A stretch of 64,000 nt of DNA from Candidatus Multivoradales bacterium (GTDB lineage Bacteria; Acidobacteriota; Thermoanaerobaculia; Multivoradales; J023), in NCBI GenBank assembly GCA_965248925.1, contig CBDFLE010000006.1, forward strand, positions 963,700 through 1,027,699, in the 5' to 3' direction. Positions 3,955-54,972 of the stretch are shown here, piece after piece. Every line of letters starts with the position of its first letter. The first letter of the stretch is position 1. The notes beneath the pieces were generated by a model. It was not told the DNA's origin. It did not search any database and was given only the letters and a program-made list of their open reading frames with translations. Both the position numbers and the translations under genes were made by a program.

Positions 3955-4683
3955 ATGGGCCAGAAGTCCCAACACTCAAAGATCTTGGCGCTTGGAAAAG
4001 CGCGCTCAGAGGGTCTCTTTGAAAGTCTCTTTGAAAGTCTCTTGGATATTTGCCGAACGGCTCGCAAGTCTGGGGACGATCAGTCAGCGCTAGAAGCATT
4101 GTCGGTTGCGGCAAATTCTCCCGACAGGCTCCCGAGCACGGATTGCAGGCTCTTGCGCCAACTGGGATCGATGCGCCGAGAGCAATGTAAGCTCGACTCT
4201 GCCTGCGATGCCTTTGGACTAGCCTCCTGCATCGCAGCGGTCGCAGGAGACAGGGTTCAATGGGCTAGGGCTGAGACAGAATTTGGGCTCTGCTTGGTCG
4301 AAGCAGGGAAGAACGACCAAGCAAGGGACGTTCTGAGAACAGCCTTGGCCGGGTTGGGACGGATGGTGTCTCAACGTCGCCACCGTGCTTCTGCGCATCT
4401 GGGACTAGCAACCGTGGATGTCGAGTCGGGTCTATACGGCGCCGCAGAATCCCACTACCGGCGAGCCGAATCGTTAGCTGAGTCCCAGGAAGACAGAGCA
4501 AAAATCCTGGCCAGCCTTGGTCGCGTGCAGATCATTCGTGGTCGCCTTGACGATGGCATTGCATCGCTACGAGACGCCCTAACGATCACGCCGAAGCTCC
4601 AAGACCGAATTGCCATCGAGATTTTGATCGAGCAGTTCGCCTCCGAAACGGCAGCCGAAGGCGAACTCAGTGCCGGCGCTTAG
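3955..4683 (+). CDS. TPR-like hypothetical protein.
   Basis: 242-aa ORF with TPR-like helical repeats. ATG 5 nt after the upstream stop. Confidence 0.4.
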   Translation: MGQKSQHSKILALGKARSEGLFESLFESLLDICRTARKSGDDQSALEALSVAANSPDRLPSTDCRLLRQLGSMRREQCKLDSACDAFGLASCIAAVAGDRVQWARAETEFGLCLVEAGKNDQARDVLRTALAGLGRMVSQRRHRASAHLGLATVDVESGLYGAAESHYRRAESLAESQEDRAKILASLGRVQIIRGRLDDGIASLRDALTITPKLQDRIAIEILIEQFASETAAEGELSAGA

Positions 4684-7274: not shown

Positions 7275-9253
7275 CGAGCACTCGGCACGAAAAACAGCTC
7301 GCCACCTTCGTCGTCAGTCAGCCTGATCGGAGCCAGGAGCGGTCGCTGGTCGAGTTCGAATCGGCGGGCAGCATCCACCACCGGCTGCTCGATCTGGCGA
7401 AATAGGGCCGACACCGGCAAGATCCGCTGATTGCCGCGAAGCGCGTCAAGCAAGGCGCGGGAGAAGACCGAGTTGCGCCCATCACCCCCAGCATCGAGCA
7501 CCGGACTGAGGCCACCCGAGGTGAGTGCCAGACGGGACCGGCGCTCGACCAACTGACGCACGCGGTCGGCATCGACCGGTGGATCGGCACTAGCGAGCGG
7601 CTCTGCCTCGTCACCCAAGGCACCGGAGTAGCATGAATCGGCCACCACCAGGACGTGGCGGGCAGCGATGTCGCCAATCAGAGTCGTGACATCGAATTTG
7701 ACGCTTACCCAATTCGACGTGTCCTCGGGCTCGGCGTCGATCGGCAGCCAGTAGCCCGACCCTTTCTGCAATAGCGAGCCGTGACCTGCGTAGAAGAGCA
7801 GCAGATTGTCGTTCGGCCCGACCTCGCCAATGATCTCGGTGAGGGCGGTGACGATCTCGTAACGTGTGGCGTTACGCAGGGTGCGCACATTGTAGCCGTA
7901 GCGGGTCTCCAGCACCTCGGCCAGCTCGCTGGCGTCGTTGACCGCGGTTTCCAGTCGCGGCAGCTTCTGGTATTCATCGTTGCCGATCAGCAGGGCGTAG
8001 GAAGCGCCGAAGTTGATCCCGGCATAGAGACTTGGGTCGTCCAGCTCATGTGCGCCTGCTGCTGATGACGCGGCTACCGCTGGGACGGTCTCTAGCGACC
8101 GACCGCCGCCACCGAGCCAGCCCATCTGCCAAGCAACCAGGGCCAACAGCAGCAAGACACCAAGTCCCACCAATGGCGCGGTGCGGCGAGGGCGGGACGG
8201 CATGCTAGCCGGCGGCTGAGCCTCGGCAGCCAGCAGCGCTCCACCACCCTCGGCGAGGGTCGGTGCCGAGGGGTTCCAGTCGCTGGGCGTGGTGCCGGCG
8301 GCGGTTGGCGCGGGCCGGGTCCGCAGGGGCCTAATGGGCTGCACCGCGGGCGGCAGCCCGGTGAAATCGTCGGCCCCGCTGTCTCCACTGCCTGAGAGGG
8401 AGCCGACCAAGGCTTCCGAAAATTCCCCGGCACTCGACCAGCGATCATCGGGACGCTTCTCAAGCGCCTTCATCACCACCCGCCGCAGCGATTCGGGAAC
8501 CGCCTCGCCGAGCGTGGTCTCGTCAAAAGCCTTGGGCGGATGGAACAGGTGCCCGGCGATGATCGACACCTCGTCATCACCCTGGATCGGATACTCGCGG
8601 GTGAGCAGCTCGTAGAGCACGATGCCGAAGGAGTAGAGGTCACTCCGCGCGTCAACCGTCACCTCCCCCTTGCTGCTTTCCAGATGTTCCGGCGAAACGT
8701 AGCGCGCTTTGCCCACCACCAAGCCGGTCTGGGTCTGAAACTGCGCTCCTTCGAGGGACTTGGCCAGACCGAGGTCGATCAGCTTGACCCGCGGGCTGCC
8801 ATCGGCGACCCAACTGAGCATCAGATTGTCGGAGGCGATATCGCGGTGGAGGATTTTCTGCTCGTGCAGGAAGGCCAGCGCGGCAAGCCCCTGGCGACCG
8901 ATCTCCACCACCTGCTCCAGCGCCAGCTGCTTGTCGGTGGCCAGCAGCTGGGCGACGTTCATGCCCTCGACCAGCTCCATCACCATGTAGGCGGTGCCGT
9001 CTTCGGCAACACTGAAGTCATAGAGCTGGGCGATCCCCGGATGGCGCAGCCGGGTCGCCACCTGCGCCTCGCGCAAGAAACGGGCCTGCAGATCAGGATC
9101 CTCGCGAAATTGGGCGCGGATCATCTTGATCACCCGCAGCTCGTCGAGGAAGACATGGCGCACCTTATAGACCGCGCCCATGCCGCCCTCGCCCATCTTG
9201 GCGACGACTTCGTACTTCTGCTCGATTTCCGGACTCAGGTGCAGCTCGCTCAT
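7271..9253 (-). CDS. Ser/Thr protein kinase (Hanks-type) - TM segment - C-terminal caspase (peptidase C14) fusion protein.
   Basis: Kinase motifs GEGGMGAVYKV, VIKMIR, HRDIASDN, DLGLAK, YVSPEH. Hydrophobic TM segment (LVGLGVLLLLALVAW). Caspase His/Cys dyad in LLLFYAGHGS and VVADSCYSG. Confidence 0.8.
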   Translation of the reverse strand: MSELHLSPEIEQKYEVVAKMGEGGMGAVYKVRHVFLDELRVIKMIRAQFREDPDLQARFLREAQVATRLRHPGIAQLYDFSVAEDGTAYMVMELVEGMNVAQLLATDKQLALEQVVEIGRQGLAALAFLHEQKILHRDIASDNLMLSWVADGSPRVKLIDLGLAKSLEGAQFQTQTGLVVGKARYVSPEHLESSKGEVTVDARSDLYSFGIVLYELLTREYPIQGDDEVSIIAGHLFHPPKAFDETTLGEAVPESLRRVVMKALEKRPDDRWSSAGEFSEALVGSLSGSGDSGADDFTGLPPAVQPIRPLRTRPAPTAAGTTPSDWNPSAPTLAEGGGALLAAEAQPPASMPSRPRRTAPLVGLGVLLLLALVAWQMGWLGGGGRSLETVPAVAASSAAGAHELDDPSLYAGINFGASYALLIGNDEYQKLPRLETAVNDASELAEVLETRYGYNVRTLRNATRYEIVTALTEIIGEVGPNDNLLLFYAGHGSLLQKGSGYWLPIDAEPEDTSNWVSVKFDVTTLIGDIAARHVLVVADSCYSGALGDEAEPLASADPPVDADRVRQLVERRSRLALTSGGLSPVLDAGGDGRNSVFSRALLDALRGNQRILPVSALFRQIEQPVVDAARRFELDQRPLLAPIRLTDDEGGELFFVPSAR

Positions 9254-20732: not shown

Positions 20733-22682
20733 TCAGCGCTGCAAGTAGGTGTAGCCCTCCAGGCCTTGGCAGTAGAGGTCGATCAGCTGCCGGGCCTGCG
20801 AACGATTCATGCGGCCGGCCTCGAGGGCACCCTCGATATTGCGACGCAGCTGGCGTAGCAGCTGGCGATCATCATACTCGACATAGGCCAACACCTCGCT
20901 GATGGTATCTCCCGGTACGACGTGCTCAATCCGGTATCCACCGTCCTGGTCGAGCGAGGCGTGCACGGCATGGGTGTCGCCGAATAGATTGTGCAGATCG
21001 CCGAGGATCTCCTGATAGGCACCCACCAGGAAAGCTCCCAGGTAGTAGGGCTGCTGGTCGAGGGAGTGCAGCTCGAGTTCAGGCTGGCCACCCGGCGGGC
21101 CAATGAAGCAGTCGACAACCCCGTCCGAATCGCAAGTTATGTCGGCCAGCACACCACGACGGCTGGGGAACTCATCCAGGCGATGGATCGGCATCAGCGG
21201 GAAAAGCTGGTCGATGGCCCAAGTATCGGGTAACGACTGGAACAAGGAGAAGTTGGTGAAGTAGATGTCCGCAAGCCGCCGGCCGAGAACCTCAAGCTCA
21301 CCGGCAGGTGCGGCGCAGGCGGCACGCTGCAACTGCCAAACCCGACGACAGAGGGCCTCGAAGATGTCTTCAGCCAGCACTCGCTCCTCAAGCGACAAGT
21401 GGCCAAGATTAAACAGGCTGAGGCATTCGTCGCGATACTGCAAGGCGTCGTGATACGCCTGGCGGCAGGTCGTCGCGTTGAGCCCATGAAAGGCCTGCAG
21501 CAGATGCACCAAGGGCGGCTCGGCGTCGGCGGGAGGTGCCGACGGGATCTCAACCCGCCGCGGCTGGCGCACGTCGAGGACTTCGAGCACTAACACCGCA
21601 TGGTGCGCCACCGTCGCTCGGCCAGCTTCGCTCACCACCACCGGATGGGGCACTCCCTCGGCATCACAGATCTCTTGAATACCGAAAATCACGCCGTTGG
21701 CGTACTCCTGCAGGGAGTAGTCGATCGACGAGCCCGCGCTCGACCGCGAGCCGTCGTAGTCGACCCCGAGACCACCGCCTACATCGAAGTAGCCCAAGGG
21801 CGCGCCGAGGCGGATCAACTGCACGTAGACCCGCGCCGCCTCACGCCAGGCTTCCTTGAGATTGCGAATCGAAGAGACTTGGCTACCGAGGTGAAAGTGC
21901 AACAGTTCGAGCCGGTCGAGCAAACCCCGACGGCGCAGCAGCGCCACCGCCTCGACCATCTCGCGAGCGCCGAGGCCAAATTTGGAGCGCGCACCCGCAG
22001 AAGCCTGCCAATGGCCCGAACCGCGGGTCGCCAGCCGGGCGCGCAGGCCAAGCCGCGGCGCAACCCCAGTTCGCTGAGCCACCTGCAATATCAGCGGCAG
22101 CTCTGCCGGCTTCTCCAGCACCAGGATGACCCGCGGCCCAAGTCGCGACGCCAGCAGAGCCGCCTCGATGTACTGCTCATCCTTGTAGCCGTTGCAGATC
22201 ACCAAAGCCTCAGGATTGTCGAGCAGCGACATCACCGCCAGCAGCTCAGGCTTGCTGCCGGCTTCCAGGCCATAGTGAAACGGCCGGCCGGCCGCCACCA
22301 GCTCTTCGACCAGAAAGCGGTTCTGATTCACCTTGATCGGGTAGACCGGGCGATAGGCAGCCTGGTAGCCATGGGCTGCGATGGCGTTGGCGAAGGCACT
22401 TTGAATCTCCGCCAACCGTGCCTTGAGGACATCGGAGAAGCGAATCAGCAGCGGCGGATCGATGCCCCGTTCGACGATCTCATCCACCAACCGTTTGAGA
22501 TCCAGCCCGCCACTACCGACCACCTCCGGCGCCACCTCGATGTGGCCGCGGGGGTTGATCGAGAAAAATCCTCGGCCCCAACTGTCGACCCGGTAGAGCT
22601 CGCGAGAATCTTTGATCGTCCAGCAGGCCTCGGCGGGGCGCGAAGACGGTCTTGCGGCATTGGCTCGGAGTCGGCTGGACAT
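20733..22682 (-). CDS. speA: Biosynthetic arginine decarboxylase.
   Basis: YPIKVNQ, HFHLGSQ, DVGGGLGVDYDGS and WTIKDSRELYRVDSWGRGFFSIN N-terminal signature. Start is ATG at 22682 or 22688. Confidence 0.9.
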   Translation of the reverse strand: MSSRLRANAARPSSRPAEACWTIKDSRELYRVDSWGRGFFSINPRGHIEVAPEVVGSGGLDLKRLVDEIVERGIDPPLLIRFSDVLKARLAEIQSAFANAIAAHGYQAAYRPVYPIKVNQNRFLVEELVAAGRPFHYGLEAGSKPELLAVMSLLDNPEALVICNGYKDEQYIEAALLASRLGPRVILVLEKPAELPLILQVAQRTGVAPRLGLRARLATRGSGHWQASAGARSKFGLGAREMVEAVALLRRRGLLDRLELLHFHLGSQVSSIRNLKEAWREAARVYVQLIRLGAPLGYFDVGGGLGVDYDGSRSSAGSSIDYSLQEYANGVIFGIQEICDAEGVPHPVVVSEAGRATVAHHAVLVLEVLDVRQPRRVEIPSAPPADAEPPLVHLLQAFHGLNATTCRQAYHDALQYRDECLSLFNLGHLSLEERVLAEDIFEALCRRVWQLQRAACAAPAGELEVLGRRLADIYFTNFSLFQSLPDTWAIDQLFPLMPIHRLDEFPSRRGVLADITCDSDGVVDCFIGPPGGQPELELHSLDQQPYYLGAFLVGAYQEILGDLHNLFGDTHAVHASLDQDGGYRIEHVVPGDTISEVLAYVEYDDRQLLRQLRRNIEGALEAGRMNRSQARQLIDLYCQGLEGYTYLQR

Positions 22683-22847
22683 CGGCATGGCCCTCGCGGT
22701 CTGGCGCCCTCGGAATCTGACCCACCGATCCGACCCTCCAGCAGAAGGAACCATCCCAGGAAAGGAGTGGGTTCTAGCACGCGGATGAACGGCCTCGGCG
22801 ACAAGATCCGGCAGTGATCGAAGTCTGGTCTGAGGCCCACGGCCCAC

Positions 22848-29367: not shown

Positions 29368-29745
29368 CTATCCGCCGACCTCTTCGGTCGTGGCGTCATC
29401 AGCGCTGGCGGCAAAGCTGGCCACCGCCTCGGCTTCGTCGTCGTAGGATTCCAACAGCGGTAGGACCTGGCTGATCTCGAGCACGTCGCGAATCCGCCCA
29501 GCGGTCGACAGCAGCTTGAGCCGCGAGCCAAAACGGCCCGCCAGGCGATAGCCGGCCACCAACTCGCCAACCCCGGCACTATCGATACGGCTGAGTCCGG
29601 ACATGTTGAGCAGGATCTGCTTCCACTCGGCGGCAACCAGTTCGTTGATCACCTCGCGCAGCATCTCCTCAGGGCCACCGGCGATCAGACGGCCTTCGAG
29701 ATCGACGATCAGAGTTTTGCCGGACTGACGAAGTTCTACGTGCAT
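29368..29745 (-). CDS. STAS-domain anti-sigma-factor antagonist (SpoIIAA-like).
   Basis: LIVDLEGRLIAG...LNMSGLSRIDSAGVGELVAGYRLAGRFGSRLKL. Confidence 0.7.
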   Translation of the reverse strand: MHVELRQSGKTLIVDLEGRLIAGGPEEMLREVINELVAAEWKQILLNMSGLSRIDSAGVGELVAGYRLAGRFGSRLKLLSTAGRIRDVLEISQVLPLLESYDDEAEAVASFAASADDATTEEVGG

Positions 29746-29871
29746 AAGCTAAGCTCTCCTGGGTTCGCGGAGGCCGCAGGATAGCACGGCCAGAGGGCGG
29801 TGAAGCGATCGTCAGGGCACCGTCACAACAACCTCGGCGGCAGAGGGAATGTTGAGCAAGGGAGAGGGTCG

Positions 29872-30170
29872 ATGGCCGAGCGAGCAAGCGAGCAAGACAC
29901 CGCCGTAGGCGATTTCATGAGGCGGAATTTCCGCCACTTCAACGCCCGCTCTGTGGTCGAAGCGGCCGCCGCTTGGGTTGCTCAGCTAGACCAGGGCAAC
30001 CACATGTTCCTTACCTTGGCGGGGGCCATGAGCACTGCTGAAATCGGCCTACAACTGACCGAGATGATCCGCCGCGGCAAAGTCCACGGCATCTGCTGCA
30101 CCGGCGCCTACCCCGAGGAAGAGCTGTTCAACCTAGTCCCCCACGACCACCATGTGGGCTTCCGGATTGA
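29872..30170 (+). pseudogene. Deoxyhypusine synthase-like gene, 5' fragment only (~100 aa), paralogous to 37756..38736.
   Basis: MAERASEQDTAVGDFMRRNFRHFNARSVVEAAAAWVAQLDQGNHMFLTLAGAMSTAEIGLQLTEMIRRGKVHGICCTGAYPEEELFNLVPHDHH, then homology is lost although the ORF continues as low-complexity junk. Confidence 0.6.
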
Positions 30171-30217
30171 TCGAGAAAAACCCTCGGCCCCAGCGGTCGA
30201 CCGAGTAGGGATCGAGC
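30163..30217. repeat. ~55-nt segment ~85% identical to speA 5' coding region (22556..22610), at the breakpoint of the DHS-like fragment.
   Basis: attgatcgagaaaaaccctcggccccagcggtcgaccgagtagggatcgagcgag vs gttgatcgagaaaaatcctcggccccaactgtcgacccggtagagctcgcgag. Minus-strand translation gives ...DRWGRGFFSINP. Confidence 0.55.
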
Positions 30218-30376
30218 GAGCTGGCGGTCGCTGCTTGTGGCGGCTCGAGGGCGGATTGATCGACCGTCTACCTGGCTGCGTAGCATTAGGATACGATCCC
30301 CCCCACCAAACGCCTTATGAACACCAGAATCTTGGACTTCTTGCCGATGAACATTGCTGCAGATTGGCCGCGGCGC

Positions 30377-35921: not shown

Positions 35922-36605
35922 TCAATCGACGGTGAAGCCCTGCAGCTCGACCGGCACCAACGAGCAGCCGGTGGCGGTGACTTCGATGATGTCCAGGGTG
36001 TACGCTCCGGCAGCTGTGTTCCAGCCATCGGCGATCAAGAAGTAATCAGTCCCTGCGGTGGCAGTGAAAGTAATGTCTTCTCCGGTACCACCATTGTCCT
36101 GGGAAGCGATGCAAGTTCCCGCCAGATTCGTGCAGTCGGTGACGACGTAGATCACCTCGTCATGAGCGCCATCTATCAGAGCATTGACATCGCAGGTGAC
36201 ATCGACTTGCACCCGCCAGGCTTCGTCGTTGGCGCTGCTATTGAAAGTCGTGTCACAAACCCCACCGATGCCGGCGATGTCATAGTCGGCGGAAAGAGCG
36301 GTGGTGTCACCGCCACTGGAGTACGGCACGGCGCCAACCTCGTTCGTCGTGCCAGGGCACATGTCAGCGGGCGCGCGATTGATCGGCAGGACCTTCTGAC
36401 CCAGGATGGTCGCGGTGCCGGCCGGAGCCTTGGCGGCTGGCATCATCTCTTGGTAGGCGGCCCGCTCGCTCGGGGTCAAGCTATGCCAGGTCAATTTGAC
36501 CTGATCCCAGTCGATGTCCTGAGCGGCGAGAGGGCTGGTGAGCAGCAAGGCGACAATGGCTAGCAAACAAGCGAGGCGTGAGAAGCTCTTCATGAATAAC
36601 TCCAA
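35922..36605 (-). CDS. Secreted Cys-rich protein with PPC-like C-terminal domain ending in the tail EVTATGCSLVPVELQGFTVD.
   Basis: Signal peptide MKSFSRLACLLAIVALLLTSPLAA. The C-terminal tail recurs at 37388 and 43702. Confidence 0.55.
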   Translation of the reverse strand: MELFMKSFSRLACLLAIVALLLTSPLAAQDIDWDQVKLTWHSLTPSERAAYQEMMPAAKAPAGTATILGQKVLPINRAPADMCPGTTNEVGAVPYSSGGDTTALSADYDIAGIGGVCDTTFNSSANDEAWRVQVDVTCDVNALIDGAHDEVIYVVTDCTNLAGTCIASQDNGGTGEDITFTATAGTDYFLIADGWNTAAGAYTLDIIEVTATGCSLVPVELQGFTVD

Positions 36606-36730: not shown

Positions 36731-37285
36731 TCAAGCGAGGCGGGGCGGCGGGTCCGGCGGCGCGCCCTCAAATAGCCTAGCGATCAGCGGTACGGAGGCC
36801 GACGAGGCCGCCAGAGAGGCCTCGGGCAGGCCGGGAACCCTACGGAGGTCCGCCGGGCTCGAACGCTGCGACGACGTCGCGGATTGCGTATCCTGACACC
36901 GCGGCACCTGGACGTCGAAGCTGCCGAGCACCACTTCGCGGTCGACGATCACCTCGCTACCGCGCGCGGCGACCCGCAGCTGGTAGGTCTGGACTCCGTC
37001 CGAAGCCGAATGACCTACCCGGTAGTCGGCGTTGCCGGGGATCGCCGGCAGCTCGTAGAGCAGCTCGAAGTCCTCCAGGCCACCGCGGCGGTAGAGCCGG
37101 AACACCCAACCGGGGCCGGCAGTGGTCGCCTCCCAGGCAATGTCGAGTTCCCCCGTCGAGTGGATCACCAGGGGCTGCTGCGCGGCTACCTCCGCGGACC
37201 GCGGCGTCACCGGCAACTCGACCCGCGCGGACGCAGGTAGGCCTTGCCACACGACTACAAGGCAACTCGCAATGGCCCCGACCAT
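36731..37285 (-). CDS. Secreted hypothetical protein.
   Basis: 184-aa ORF with N-terminal hydrophobic segment. No recognisable domain. Confidence 0.35.
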   Translation of the reverse strand: MVGAIASCLVVVWQGLPASARVELPVTPRSAEVAAQQPLVIHSTGELDIAWEATTAGPGWVFRLYRRGGLEDFELLYELPAIPGNADYRVGHSASDGVQTYQLRVAARGSEVIVDREVVLGSFDVQVPRCQDTQSATSSQRSSPADLRRVPGLPEASLAASSASVPLIARLFEGAPPDPPPRLA

Positions 37286-37387
37286 CCACCTCCCGGCAGG
37301 ATCGGATACGGAAACCCGTCGTTCGTTTCTGATAGGGGATTACTACCACAGAGACCCGTTGCCCGCAAGCGCATCCCGGCTTGGCGG

Positions 37388-37582
37388 TCAATCGACCCTG
37401 AAGCTCTGCAGCTCCACCGGGATCGAGCAACCGGTGGCGGTGGCTTCAGAAATCTGCCGCCAGGCGGCGGCGATCAGCTCGTTGATCACTCCGCGAAACA
37501 TCTCCTCAAGGCCGCCGGCGACCCGACGGCCTTCGAGGTCGACGATCAAGGTGCTGCTGGACTGACCAAGCTCTACCTGCAT
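37388..37582 (-). pseudogene. Chimeric 64-aa ORF: N-terminal 45 aa of a STAS antagonist paralog fused to the C-terminal tail ...ATGCSIPVELQSFRVD of a secreted-protein paralog.
   Basis: MQVELGQSSSTLIVDLEGRRVAGGLEEMFRGVINELIAAAWRQ is ~85% nt-identical to 29620..29745. The last 65 nt are ~85% identical to 35922..35987. Confidence 0.5.
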
Positions 37583-37643
37583 GGGCTATGCTCCCCGGGC
37601 GCCGCAGGGTGTCTTGCAAACCGTGCCAAGGTCTGCGGAAACC

Positions 37644-37695
37644 GCAAGATCGCACTGCAAGATCGCACTGCAAGATCGCACTGCAAGATCGCACT
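37644..37695. repeat. Perfect 13-bp tandem repeat x4 (gcaagatcgcact) in the intergenic/promoter region upstream of the DHS-like gene.
   Basis: Read directly: accgcaagatcgcactgcaagatcgcactgcaagatcgcactgcaagatcgcactgcgg. Confidence 0.85.
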
Positions 37696-37755
37696 GCGGA
37701 AGCGCCGCGACAGCCGCCGGCGGCAGATGGAAAGCCGACGTGAGGAGTCCGCCCC

Positions 37756-38736
37756 TTGAGCGACGAAAATATCTCAGTGCGCGACTTCATGCGGCGCAAC
37801 TTTCGCCACTTCAACGCCCGCTCGGTGGTCGAGGCGGCCGACGCCTGGGTCGCTCAGCTGCGCCAGGGCAACCACATGTTTCTCACCCTGGCTGGGGCGA
37901 TGAGCACCGCCGAGATCGGCCTCCAGCTGGCCGAGATGATCCGCCGTGGCAAAGTCCACGGCATCTGCTGCACCGGCGCCAATCTCGAGGAAGACCTGTT
38001 CAACCTGGTCGCCCACGACCACTACCAGCGGATCGCCGATTGGCGTTCGCTGACCGCCGGGAATGAGGCCGAACTCGCCGAGCACGGCCTCAACCGGGTG
38101 ACCGACACCTGTATCCCTGAAGTCCAGGCGATGCGCAAGATCGAGCAGCTGATCGCCCTGCGGTGGCACGATGCCGAGGCCGCTGGCCAGCGCCACCTGC
38201 CGCACCAGTTCGTCTATCAGCTGCTACTCAGCGGCGACCTCGAGGAGGCTTACCAGATCGATCCCAACGACTGCTGGCTATTGGCGGCGGCGCAGCGGGA
38301 CCTGCCCCTCTTCGTCCCCGGCTGGGAGGATTCGACCCTCGGCAACATGTTCGTCGCCCGCCATCTGAGCGGCGAGATCGCCAATCTCGACACCGTCAAA
38401 GGGGGCTTGCACTACATGCAGGAATTGGTCGATTGGTACCGCCGCGAGACGGCGGAGCGATGTCTCGGGTTTTTCCAAATCGGTGGCGGAATCGCCGGCG
38501 ATTTCCCAATCTGCGTGGTGCCGCTGATCCAACAGGATCTGGACCAGGAGATTGGCTTGTGGTCCTACTTCTGCCAGGTCAGCGACAGCACCACCTCCTA
38601 CGGCTCCTACAGTGGCGCGGTGCCGAACGAGAAGATCAGCTGGGGCAAACTGGCGCCGGAGACGCCGAAGTTCATCATCGAGAGCGACGCTTCGATCGTC
38701 GCGCCGCTGGTCTTCGCCTGGGTCCTGGCAAGCTAG
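37756..38736 (+). CDS. Deoxyhypusine synthase-like (DHS/homospermidine-synthase family) protein.
   Basis: FMRRNFRHFNARSV...TLAGAMSTAEIG...KVHGICCTGANLEEDLFNL. TTG start with GAGGAG RBS. Confidence 0.75.
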   Translation: MSDENISVRDFMRRNFRHFNARSVVEAADAWVAQLRQGNHMFLTLAGAMSTAEIGLQLAEMIRRGKVHGICCTGANLEEDLFNLVAHDHYQRIADWRSLTAGNEAELAEHGLNRVTDTCIPEVQAMRKIEQLIALRWHDAEAAGQRHLPHQFVYQLLLSGDLEEAYQIDPNDCWLLAAAQRDLPLFVPGWEDSTLGNMFVARHLSGEIANLDTVKGGLHYMQELVDWYRRETAERCLGFFQIGGGIAGDFPICVVPLIQQDLDQEIGLWSYFCQVSDSTTSYGSYSGAVPNEKISWGKLAPETPKFIIESDASIVAPLVFAWVLAS

Positions 38737-38811: not shown

Positions 38812-40197
38812 ATGGCCCGCTTCCGCGTCCCGCACACGCTCGTCCTGCTCTTCGCCATGATCGTCTTGGCCCTGCTGATGTCCTACATCCTGCCCCAGGG
38901 CGAGTTCGAGCGCTTCGAGAACGCCAACGGTCGGCAGCAGGTCAAGGCGGGCACCTACACCATGCTCGAGGACGTCGAGCGAGTCTCGCCGCTGGCCATC
39001 TTCACCGCCATTCCTCGGGGCTTCGAAGCGGCGGCGGAGATCATCTTCTTCGTCTTCATCGCCGGTGGCATGTTCGCCGTGCTGCGCAAAACCGGCACCG
39101 TCGACGCGCTGATTGGCCTCTTGCTCGACAAACTGGGCGGCGCCCCACAGCTGCTGATCGGCGGCGGCATCTTCGTCTTCGCCGTCGGCTCAAGCACCAT
39201 CGGCATGGCCGAGGAGTACATCCCCTTCGTGCCGGTGCTGCTCGCCCTATGCTTCGGCCTGGGCTTCGACGCGGTGACCGCCATCGGCATCCTCTGCGTT
39301 GGCTACGGGGTGGGCTATGGCACCGCGCTGATCAACCCTTTCACCGTGCTGATCGCCCAGGACGTCGCCGAGCTGCAGCCGACCTCGGGACTGGGTTATC
39401 GCGCGCTGCTGTTCTTCGTCTTCGTGGCACTCGGCACGCACCACGTCTGGTCCTACGCCAAGCGAGTGCGCAAAGACCCGGCGGCGAGCCTGGTGGCCGA
39501 CATTGAGCCCGACCCGAGCCTCAAGGCCGCCGAGCGGGTACCGATGACCAGCAGCCATTGGCTGATCCTGGCCATTCTGCTGGCGACCATCGGTCTGATC
39601 GTCTGGGGCCTCAGTCAGTGGTCGGGATGGCATTGGTACGTCCACGAAATGGGCGCTGTCTTTCTAGGTTTGTCCGTGGTGTTGGCGCTGGTCGGCCGGC
39701 TGAGTCCAGACTCCGCCGCCAAATCGTTCTGTGCCGGCGCTGCCGAACTCACCACCACGGCGTTGCTGATCGGTTTTGCCCGCTCGATTCTGATCATCCT
39801 CGAAGACGGCAGGGTGATCGACACTTTGGTGCACGGTATCTCGCTGCCCTTGACCCACGCCGGTCCGATGCTGGCGGCGGGCGGCATGCTGGCCTTCCAG
39901 AGCCTGTGCAACCTCTTCATCCCCTCCGGCTCGGGCCAGGCCTACGTCACCATGCCGATCATGGCGCCGCTCGGCGACTTGGTTGGAGTGCAACGGCAGG
40001 TGGCGGTGCTGGCCTACCAATTCGGCGACGGCTTGACCAACATCCTGGTGCCCACCAACGCGGTGTTGATCGGCATCCTGACCATGGCCCGGATCCCTTA
40101 CGACCGCTGGTTACGCTTCATCCTGCCGTTCATGTTCAAGGCCTGGGCCTTGGCCGCCGTGGCCTTGGCGGTGGCGGTCTGGTTCGGTTACAACTAG
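38812..40197 (+). CDS. YfcC-family polytopic transporter (putative basic amino acid/C4-dicarboxylate carrier-like).
   Basis: 461 aa, ~12 TM. Architecture and motifs ([18 protein letters not shown]) are consistent with YfcC/DcuC-like carriers. Family call is moderate. Confidence 0.55.
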
Positions 40198-42893: not shown

Positions 42894-43078
42894 GCTGCTT
42901 GCAGGCCCAGTTTGATCCATGGTATTCTTCCTCTACTAATTAAAGACTAGCGGAACTTGAGGGAGATCCAAGGCCCGCTCGACACTCTCCCCGTGCCTTG
43001 CCGGCGGAGAAAGTCAACCCAACCCCAACGCCCCTCTGCGGTCTCACTTTCAGACCAGCGGATCGGAGGAATTCTGGA

Positions 43079-43702
43079 ATGTTGAAGATTGCACGCTTTG
43101 CCTTGATCGCCGCCGCCCTCTGCCTGGTGGTCGGCAGCGCCTGGAGCACCGGCAGCGTCACCACCGGCGATGCCGCGGTGCCAATCCCTGACAACTCCGC
43201 CGGCACTTTCGCCTGCCAATCGCTGATGGTGGCTGCCGACGGGGTCAACGGTGACAACATCACCGATCTGACGGTGACCATCGGTGTGGATCACTCCTGG
43301 GTTGGCGACACCACCCTACAGCTGACCGGCCCGAATTGTGGCCCACTCAACGTTTACGCCCGCCCGGGCGCCGCGGCCGGCGTCGGCGCCGGCGATTCGA
43401 GCGATCTCTGCGCGGCGACGCCGCTCGGCTTCAACGATGGCAACGCGACGGATGCCGAAACCATGGGCGCCCCCGAAGCTGGCGGGTCCTGCGTCGGCAC
43501 TTCCGGTCCGCTGGCGTATTTCTCCAACGGTGACGAGGTGGGTGGTGCGATGACCCTGACCGGCTGTGTTGGCACGGATGCGGTGGGCTCCTGGATGCTG
43601 TGCATCGACGACGCCGGGGGTGGCGACACCGGCACTCTGCAGACCTGGACCCTCGACGTGACCACCGATCCGGTGGAGCTGATCGAGTTCAGCGTCGACT
43701 GA
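43079..43702 (+). CDS. Secreted protein with P-domain-like region ending in the tail ...TLDVTTDPVELIEFSVD.
   Basis: Signal peptide MLKIARFALIAAALCLVVGSAWS. GGAGG RBS. The C-terminal motif is shared with 35922..36605. Confidence 0.55.
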   Translation: MLKIARFALIAAALCLVVGSAWSTGSVTTGDAAVPIPDNSAGTFACQSLMVAADGVNGDNITDLTVTIGVDHSWVGDTTLQLTGPNCGPLNVYARPGAAAGVGAGDSSDLCAATPLGFNDGNATDAETMGAPEAGGSCVGTSGPLAYFSNGDEVGGAMTLTGCVGTDAVGSWMLCIDDAGGGDTGTLQTWTLDVTTDPVELIEFSVD

Positions 43703-54708: not shown

Positions 54709-54972
54709 TTAGTCCACCTTGGCGTTCTGTTCGATGTAGGAGACCGCGTCTTGTACCTTGGCGATCTTCTCGGCTTCGTCGTCGGGGATCTCGAGGTCGA
54801 ACTCTTCCTCGAACGCCATCACCAGCTCGACGATGTCGAGAGAGTCGGCGCCGAGATCGTCGGTGAAGCTGGCGGCAGGAATGACTTCATCCTGCTCGAC
54901 GCCCAGCTGCTCCGCGATGATGCTGTTGACCTTGTCTTTAATGGCGTCTTTAGTGGCGTCTTTAGTGGCCAT
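54709..54972 (-). CDS. acpP: Acyl carrier protein.
   Basis: [20 protein letters not shown] phosphopantetheine-attachment motif. GGAGG RBS. N-terminus [13 protein letters not shown] comes from an imperfect 12-bp repeat x3. Confidence 0.9.

Follow-up and report, generated by a model that had tools for sequence, protein, structure and literature searches.

A perfect 13-bp tandem repeat upstream of a SpeY-type gene in an Acidobacteriota genome: probably a young slippage repeat in a duplicated spacer

Described repeat systems and the 13-bp array

The intergenic VNTRs of bacteria, which are used as loci for MLVA typing, are made by slipped-strand mispairing. Classical hypermutable tracts consist of units of 1-7 nt, and their slippage should be far above that of long repeats with few copies. 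Tuning of expression by repeats is known mainly from host-adapted pathogens and surface genes. Other short repeats are tandem-box operators and related arrays, such as the met-boxes of MetJ, the heptad arrays of the omega protein, and plasmid iterons; these motifs are found repeatedly, at a number of promoters or origins, and related organisms share them. The DNA-unwinding 13-mers of E. coli oriC (GATCTnTTnTTTT) are also short repeated units, and they are AT-rich. The hmw1A and hmw2A promoters of Haemophilus influenzae contain 7-bp repeats in 9-28 copies, with documented variation and effects on expression (PMC2424069, PMC8262952), and the repeat number at hmwA is inversely correlated with the transcript level (PMC2424069). 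A literature search for 13-bp promoter repeats found none.

The repeat described here lies in a window of 64,000 nucleotides, that is, the whole stretch of DNA that was analysed. Tandem Repeats Finder placed GCAAGATCGCACT in tandem at 37644-37697, with a period of 13, 4.2 copies, 100% matches, no indels, and a score of 108. The complete units occupy 37644-37656, 37657-37669, 37670-37682, and 37683-37695, and are followed by a partial 'GC'. A sequence-only reading of this DNA had described a perfect 13-bp repeat in four copies at 37644-37695, and both the sequence itself and Tandem Repeats Finder agree with it. The GC content of the array is 56%. Every unit contains one GATC and holds an imperfect palindrome, TGCAAGATCGCA, which is 8/12 self-complementary.

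The chance baseline was a set of 200 simulated 64-kb windows, generated by a first-order Markov model with the dinucleotide make-up of the window, in which repeats with a period of at least 7 were scored. The best simulated score was 73, in comparison with 108 for the 13-bp array, so the array is no chance event. No other copy of GCAAGATCGCACT with at most 1 mismatch was found within the 64-kb window, and allowing up to 2 mismatches gave 2 additional matches, which was similar to the 2.4 expected. The motif was not found in 171 related loci, and a 22-mer taken from the array had 0 matches in collections of genome, metagenome, and viral contigs.

The array resembles intergenic VNTRs in its head-to-tail unit of the 10-25-bp class, the near-perfect identity of its copies, its intergenic position, the single-copy counterpart in relatives, and a unit length that is not a multiple of 3. 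However, the hallmark of VNTRs is copy-number polymorphism, and this array is known from one genome. Like the hmwA repeats, it is an upstream tandem repeat where the number of units could change transcription while the protein stays unchanged, but it has four copies of 13 bp, belongs to a metabolic gene, and is known from sequence alone. With its 13-nt unit and 4.2 copies, it also falls outside the class of hypermutable tracts, which have units of 1-7 nt in many copies. Abutting, identical short units between divergent genes are a feature shared with the MetJ, omega, and iteron arrays; in contrast to these, the 13-mer is confined to a single spacer, and the relatives carry the unit once. With its 13-bp period and a GATC in each unit, the array is reminiscent of the oriC 13-mers, but it is not AT-rich. 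A replication origin or a cluster of Dam sites was rejected because the window contained no DnaA boxes, the cumulative GC skew was monotonic without a turn, and no replication genes were nearby. The ratio of observed to expected GATC in the window was 1.05.

The divergent spacer and its duplicated copy

The array is in the middle of a divergent non-coding spacer of 173 bp (37583-37755), here called the copy B spacer. On its left, a chimeric 64-aa ORF (37388-37582) is read on the minus strand, and on its right is an intact plus-strand gene of the deoxyhypusine synthase family (DHS-like, SpeY-type, 326 aa, 37756-38736). There are 58 nt between the end of the array and the TTG start at 37756, and a GAGGAG ribosome-binding site, read from the sequence, is located on the plus strand at 37742-37747, 8 nt ahead of this start. 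Since the DHS frame is closed upstream by an in-frame TGA (37741-37743), the DHS ORF does not reach the array. The ORFs that cross the array (37244-37759, 37588-37743, and 37506-37814) match no NCBIfam family, and all of them overlap real genes; together with the in-frame TGA, this ruled out a coding role or a frameshift switch and bore out the claim of the sequence-only reading that the repeat is non-coding. The coordinates also agree with the other claim on its position, between the divergent genes and immediately before the intact DHS-like gene.

An 8-nt direct repeat, CTGCGGAA, flanks the array on the plus strand, with the left copy at 37633-37640 and the right copy at 37694-37701, 61 nt from the left one. 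The left copy overlaps GCGGAAACCGC (37635-37645), a small palindrome with GCGG/CCGC arms that recur in copy A of the spacer and in the related contig L086 (GCGGAGGCCGC), both of which are described below. The spacer of copy A is 117 bp long; in comparison with it, the copy B spacer has the repeat expansion of 41 nt and a further insertion of ~31 nt (about 37600-37630). The only certain effect of the array is geometric, namely the 39-41 bp that it adds upstream of the speY-type gene. The 13-bp period is off the helical repeat of 10.5 bp, and on B-DNA there is an angle of ~86 degrees between successive units; the gain or loss of one unit would rotate the upstream DNA by this angle relative to the downstream DNA.

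The divergent ORF on the left had been called chimeric in the earlier reading, and the description is apt, as 44 STAS codons (codons 1-44, 73% identical to copy A) are joined to a tail, 'PVELQSFRVD', that resembles the C-terminus of ORF 35922-36605. The ORF is probably a gene remnant, the tail of which was copied from a neighbour-like gene. A C-terminal motif, PVELxxFxV-D-stop, is common to three ORFs of the window (35922-35987, 37388-37453, and 43637-43702), and TATGCS precedes it in two of the three. Two of the ORFs, the chimeric STAS ORF and ORF 35922-36605, have no Pfam or NCBIfam match, and the third, ORF 42998-43702, has a Pfam P_proprotein domain. This motif may be a lineage-specific C-terminal signal for sorting or processing.

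Copy A (29615-30150), which is homologous to copy B 37452-38022, comprises the 5' part of STAS, the spacer, and the beginning of a DHS-like gene. The STAS gene of copy A is intact (125 aa, PF01740), but only the first ~90 DHS-like codons are present (84% identical). At 30142-30219, this DHS-like fragment is directly joined by 26 codons of speA (residues 81-106) in minus orientation. At the junction, DHS codon ~90 meets speA codon ~106, from where the sequence continues towards the start of speA, as expected of a tandem duplication. The two repeat pairs, 22525-22607 / 30137-30219 and 29615-30150 / 37452-38022, have spacings of 7612 and 7872 bp, which also agree with tandem duplication. The arrangement points to an old tandem segmental duplication of ~7.6-7.9 kb, the unit of which would have had one end within speA and the other within the DHS-like gene. 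The two duplicate copies are complementary, with an intact STAS gene and a truncated speY fragment in one, and a truncated STAS and an intact speY in the other. No homology is left between their interiors, which contain nSTAND and other genes in one copy and FG-GAP/ASPIC-TPR genes in the other.

The closest relative found was L086, a 14-kb metagenome contig with 89% nucleotide identity over the DHS-like and YfcC/DcuC-type genes. In a three-way alignment, L086 has a single GCAGGATAGCACG unit at the homologous site of the array (L086:762-774), 10/13 identical to the array unit and with alignable flanks. The copy A spacer also contains one diverged proto-unit, GCAGGATAGCACG, on the plus strand at 29776-29788, with the same 10/13 identity. 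The repeat had been said to be absent from copy A; this is correct for the array, but one diverged unit is present there at the homologous position. GCAGGATAGCACG sits within the element GCGGAnnCCGCAnGATnGCAC, which, in the sequences searched, is confined to the three spacers of copy A, copy B, and L086. The presence of one unit at the homologous site in both copy A and L086 argues that the array is a local expansion and not a foreign insertion.

The copies of the array are identical, in comparison with differences of 11-13% in the adjacent coding DNA and 22-30% in the spacer among copies A, B, and L086. Identical copies in diverged surroundings indicate that the expansion would be much younger than both the A/B duplication and the split from L086. 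The left (STAS-proximal) block of the copy B spacer was 78% identical to copy A and to L086, whereas copy A 29697-29787 and L086:683-773 were 97.8% identical (2 mismatches in 91 nt), and the flanking coding DNA was 87-89% identical. The repeat therefore arose in the copy with the most diverged spacer. The 97.8% identity of the block between copy A and L086 suggests either that a cis-element is under strong constraint or that sequence was exchanged recently. This conserved 91-nt block covers STAS codons 1-16, the leader of STAS, and the proto-unit, and the truncated STAS gene of L086 has 16 codons left.

On the minus strand, the unit of copy A reads TGCTATCCT, an extended -10-like sequence 32 nt upstream of the STAS ATG, and GGAGAG is located 8 nt before this ATG. 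Read in the same direction, the units of copy B are TGCGATCTT, with TG, A2, and T6 kept and the first -10 position changed from T to G. From this resemblance, the array may be a fourfold copy of a decaying promoter piece that belonged to the gene truncated in copy B.

Our preferred reading, to which we give a probability of about 0.6, is that the array is a young VNTR-type repeat, generated by slippage in a fast-evolving duplicated spacer and without a dedicated function. The ancestral spacer would have contained the 13-nt segment once, a state preserved in copy A and L086, and this segment would have been duplicated and then expanded to 4.2 identical copies by slipped-strand mispairing. The expansion would have occurred in copy B of the old segmental duplication, where STAS was truncated, the left half of the spacer evolved fast, and other insertions accumulated. 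The amplified unit would correspond to the extended -10-like element of the divergent STAS gene in copy A. Judging from the negative results given below, the array is most likely neutral or mildly modulatory, with no dedicated function. Counting against this reading, the perfect identity of the copies is equally expected from ongoing selected turnover.

Repeats in relatives and candidate functions

The spacer of L086 has a repeat of its own, an 11-bp unit, ACAGAGGCAAT, in 3.2 copies (L086:824-858), 20 nt before the DHS-like ATG. The block that it amplifies is the second of the conserved ones and is present once in each of copies A and B of the window (GGCAGAGGGAAT / GGCAGATGGAAA), so that the 13-bp and 11-bp expansions each amplify one of the two best-conserved blocks among the three versions of the spacer. 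The independent expansion of a different unit in the same spacer leaves room for a tuning role, and if the amplified conserved blocks are cis-elements, both expansions may matter. We consider it rather improbable that these blocks are core cis-regulatory pieces, the independent amplification of which would be a recurrent, selected re-tuning or repair of the expression of a homospermidine-pathway gene after upstream rearrangements. A further repeat, of 23 bp in three copies, was located 87-154 nt upstream of the DHS-like gene in L083, a relative with 73% identity (L083:3847-3914).

Protein-based searches for the locus in genome and metagenome contigs gave relatives with at most 68% identity, which are fit for statistics and too distant for alignment of the spacer; neither the 13-mer motif nor a STAS neighbour was found in their upstream regions. 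In 166 loci (1.07 Mb), 2 repeats were within 250 nt upstream of the gene, in comparison with 1.6 expected from the overall density. Nine near relatives had about 5 intergenic repeats in about 5.7 kb, 2 of which were upstream of speY versus 1.7 expected. This tally covered distinct relatives only and repeats with a period of at least 7, at least 2.5 copies, and a score of at least 50, and the DNA upstream of speY made up 34% of the intergenic DNA. The idea that repeats are a recurrent feature upstream of speY was rejected, as the signal, based on small counts, was gone after normalisation to the intergenic repeat density. The absence of enrichment upstream of speY indicates that short intergenic repeats look like a background of the clade in this small sample.

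The near relatives, on Thermoanaerobaculia-type contigs, have roughly one intergenic repeat per kb in a small sample, including the repeat of L083 given above and those at L082:5021-5064 and 8205-8245 and at L170:4588-4613. Tandem tracts with units of 7-8 nt (GTTACTG, GTTCCAAC, GGTCCAAC, and ACTTTCA) were observed in other Acidobacteriota loci, at L019:3910-3933, L041:138-176 and 2658-2689, L061:2434-3075, and L024:8029-8062. The window itself also contains in-frame repeats. A 12-bp unit in three copies (54934-54969), in a minus-strand gene ending at 54972, is located at the N-terminus of an acyl carrier protein (...DSLD motif) and is a duplication inside a small protein of high conservation. 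In ORF 3955-4683, close to its start, a perfect 12-bp repeat, GTCTCTTTGAAA, in 2.6 copies (4013-4043) is translated as LFESLFESLL.

A scan of 37000-38200 found no match to the sigma-70 promoter consensus and no terminator-like site. A sigma-54-like reading (TCGCAC...CTGCA), checked by eye, was rejected, since it lacks the GG and has the wrong spacing. No Rfam family was found at gathering thresholds in the window, and a permissive scan of 37300-37900 gave only matches at chance level (E >= 2.3). The predicted RNA folding of either strand was no better than that of shuffled sequences (z = -0.89 and -0.40). Among the neighbouring ORFs scanned, no gene for a DNA-binding regulator was recognised; the neighbours are the STAS remnant, the DHS-like gene, the YfcC/DcuC-type transporter, and FG-GAP/ASPIC, TPR, and C25 peptidase genes.

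The array could instead be a copy-number-variable, contingency-like element, close to the variable promoter spacer suggested in the sequence-only reading, in which the number of units would shift the spacing or phasing of the promoter or the length of the leader and thereby set the expression of speY. Its place in a short spacer between divergent genes, 58 nt ahead of the start codon, is consistent with such a role, its perfect copies would be prone to slippage, and a second, independent repeat is present in the spacer of L086 and a third in L083. The promoter repeats of hmwA would be its nearest functional analogue, and the relation between repeat number and transcript level there would be a precedent (PMC2424069). 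However, the unit is long and has only four copies, so its slippage rates should be far below those of the classical tracts, and the speY-type gene, which encodes a polyamine enzyme of the housekeeping type, belongs neither to the surface genes nor to those for restriction-modification. Repeats upstream of this gene were no commoner than the intergenic background, and the sigma-70 scan placed no promoter that the array could space. Taken together, we regard this tuning role as unlikely. It is quite unlikely that the four TGCGATCTT units are weak minus-strand starts, which would direct transcription away from speY into the STAS remnant and might interfere with the speY promoter. The position of TGCTATCCT in copy A, 32 nt before the STAS ATG with its GGAGAG, is a textbook geometry of a -10 element and a short leader, and TG and the A2/T6 positions are kept in every unit of copy B. 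But this is a resemblance to a consensus, and the promoter rules of this phylum are not established here; the first -10 position has changed from T to G, the two-hexamer promoter scan was empty, and the STAS ORF downstream is truncated and would give no obvious product.

The sequence-only reading had also proposed an array of binding sites for a regulator, in this case four adjacent putative sites through which a DNA-binding protein would control speY, the divergent gene, or both. Direct repeats in a divergent control region are the classical layout of an operator, one unit is kept (10/13) in copy A and L086 inside the block of 97.8% identity, and each unit contains the imperfect palindrome TGCAAGATCGCA. 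This proposal did not hold up well and is very unlikely in our view: the motif is found elsewhere neither in the window nor in the 171 related loci, the paralogue and the closest relative have a single unit and no array, the 13-bp period would place successive sites ~86 degrees apart, and no regulator was recognised among the scanned neighbours. The perfect identity of the copies also points to a recent duplication and not to maintained sites. A structured or protein-bound RNA leader in the 5' UTR of speY (a riboswitch, an attenuator, or a repeated RNA-binding motif) would be in keeping with the position upstream of a biosynthetic gene, and four identical 13-nt motifs would be in the leader if transcription starts upstream of the array. 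It is disfavoured, and we hold it to be extremely improbable, given that there was no Rfam family at gathering thresholds, no fold better than shuffles (z -0.89), no terminator-like site, and no conservation in relatives. An artefact, in which the assembly or polishing of long reads would have expanded or mis-joined a repeat, has equally little probability. Although the source is a single 5.2-Mb contig (NCBI and ENA), the four units are exact, the clean, unique flanks can both be aligned with copy A and L086, and the array of 54 bp is well below read length; comparable repeats are also present in independent assemblies of relatives.

The downstream gene and the significance of the array

The DHS-like protein encoded downstream of the array matched PF01916 (E = 3.3e-41) at residues 18-321, the DS domain thus extending over the full length. 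Its best NCBIfam equivalog score was 123 bits, in comparison with a cut-off of 450. The N-termini of 326-aa homologues support the TTG start at 37756. Besides its own entry, the closest homologue was 83% identical and the others were at most 74% identical, and those with names were from MAGs of Acidobacteriota/Thermoanaerobaculia. In relatives with 71-74% protein identity, speA (arginine decarboxylase) divergently adjoins the DHS-like gene in place of STAS, and the upstream regions of these orthologues do not align with the array region, with nothing conserved. The speA gene of the window itself (20733-22847) is 15 kb away from the DHS-like gene. SpeY-type enzymes couple agmatine en route to homospermidine (PMC13625781). 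The linkage of the DHS-like gene and speA fits a putative SpeY-type function in the homospermidine pathway.

Behind the DHS-like gene, the window encodes a transporter of the YfcC/DcuC family, a putative basic amino acid antiporter (38812-40197), which was also found at L086:1947-3332, L171:4099-5475, and L001:4161-4553. Its position next to the DHS-like gene in several relatives suggests a functional link, possibly the transport of arginine/agmatine or polyamine.

As it stands, the array matters little, being one more short intergenic repeat in a lineage whose near relatives show many. The rearrangement around it is more instructive, since the duplication left two complementary, half-dead copies. 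If the number of copies varied and set the transcription of speY, the tuning of expression by repeats would be extended to a core polyamine (homospermidine) pathway and to an environmental phylum. The locus would then also be a clean example of a promoter region rebuilt after segmental duplication and gene truncation. If the amplification of conserved blocks does re-tune or repair expression, it would amount to a rheostat, built from repeats, for the expression of a polyamine gene of free-living Acidobacteriota.
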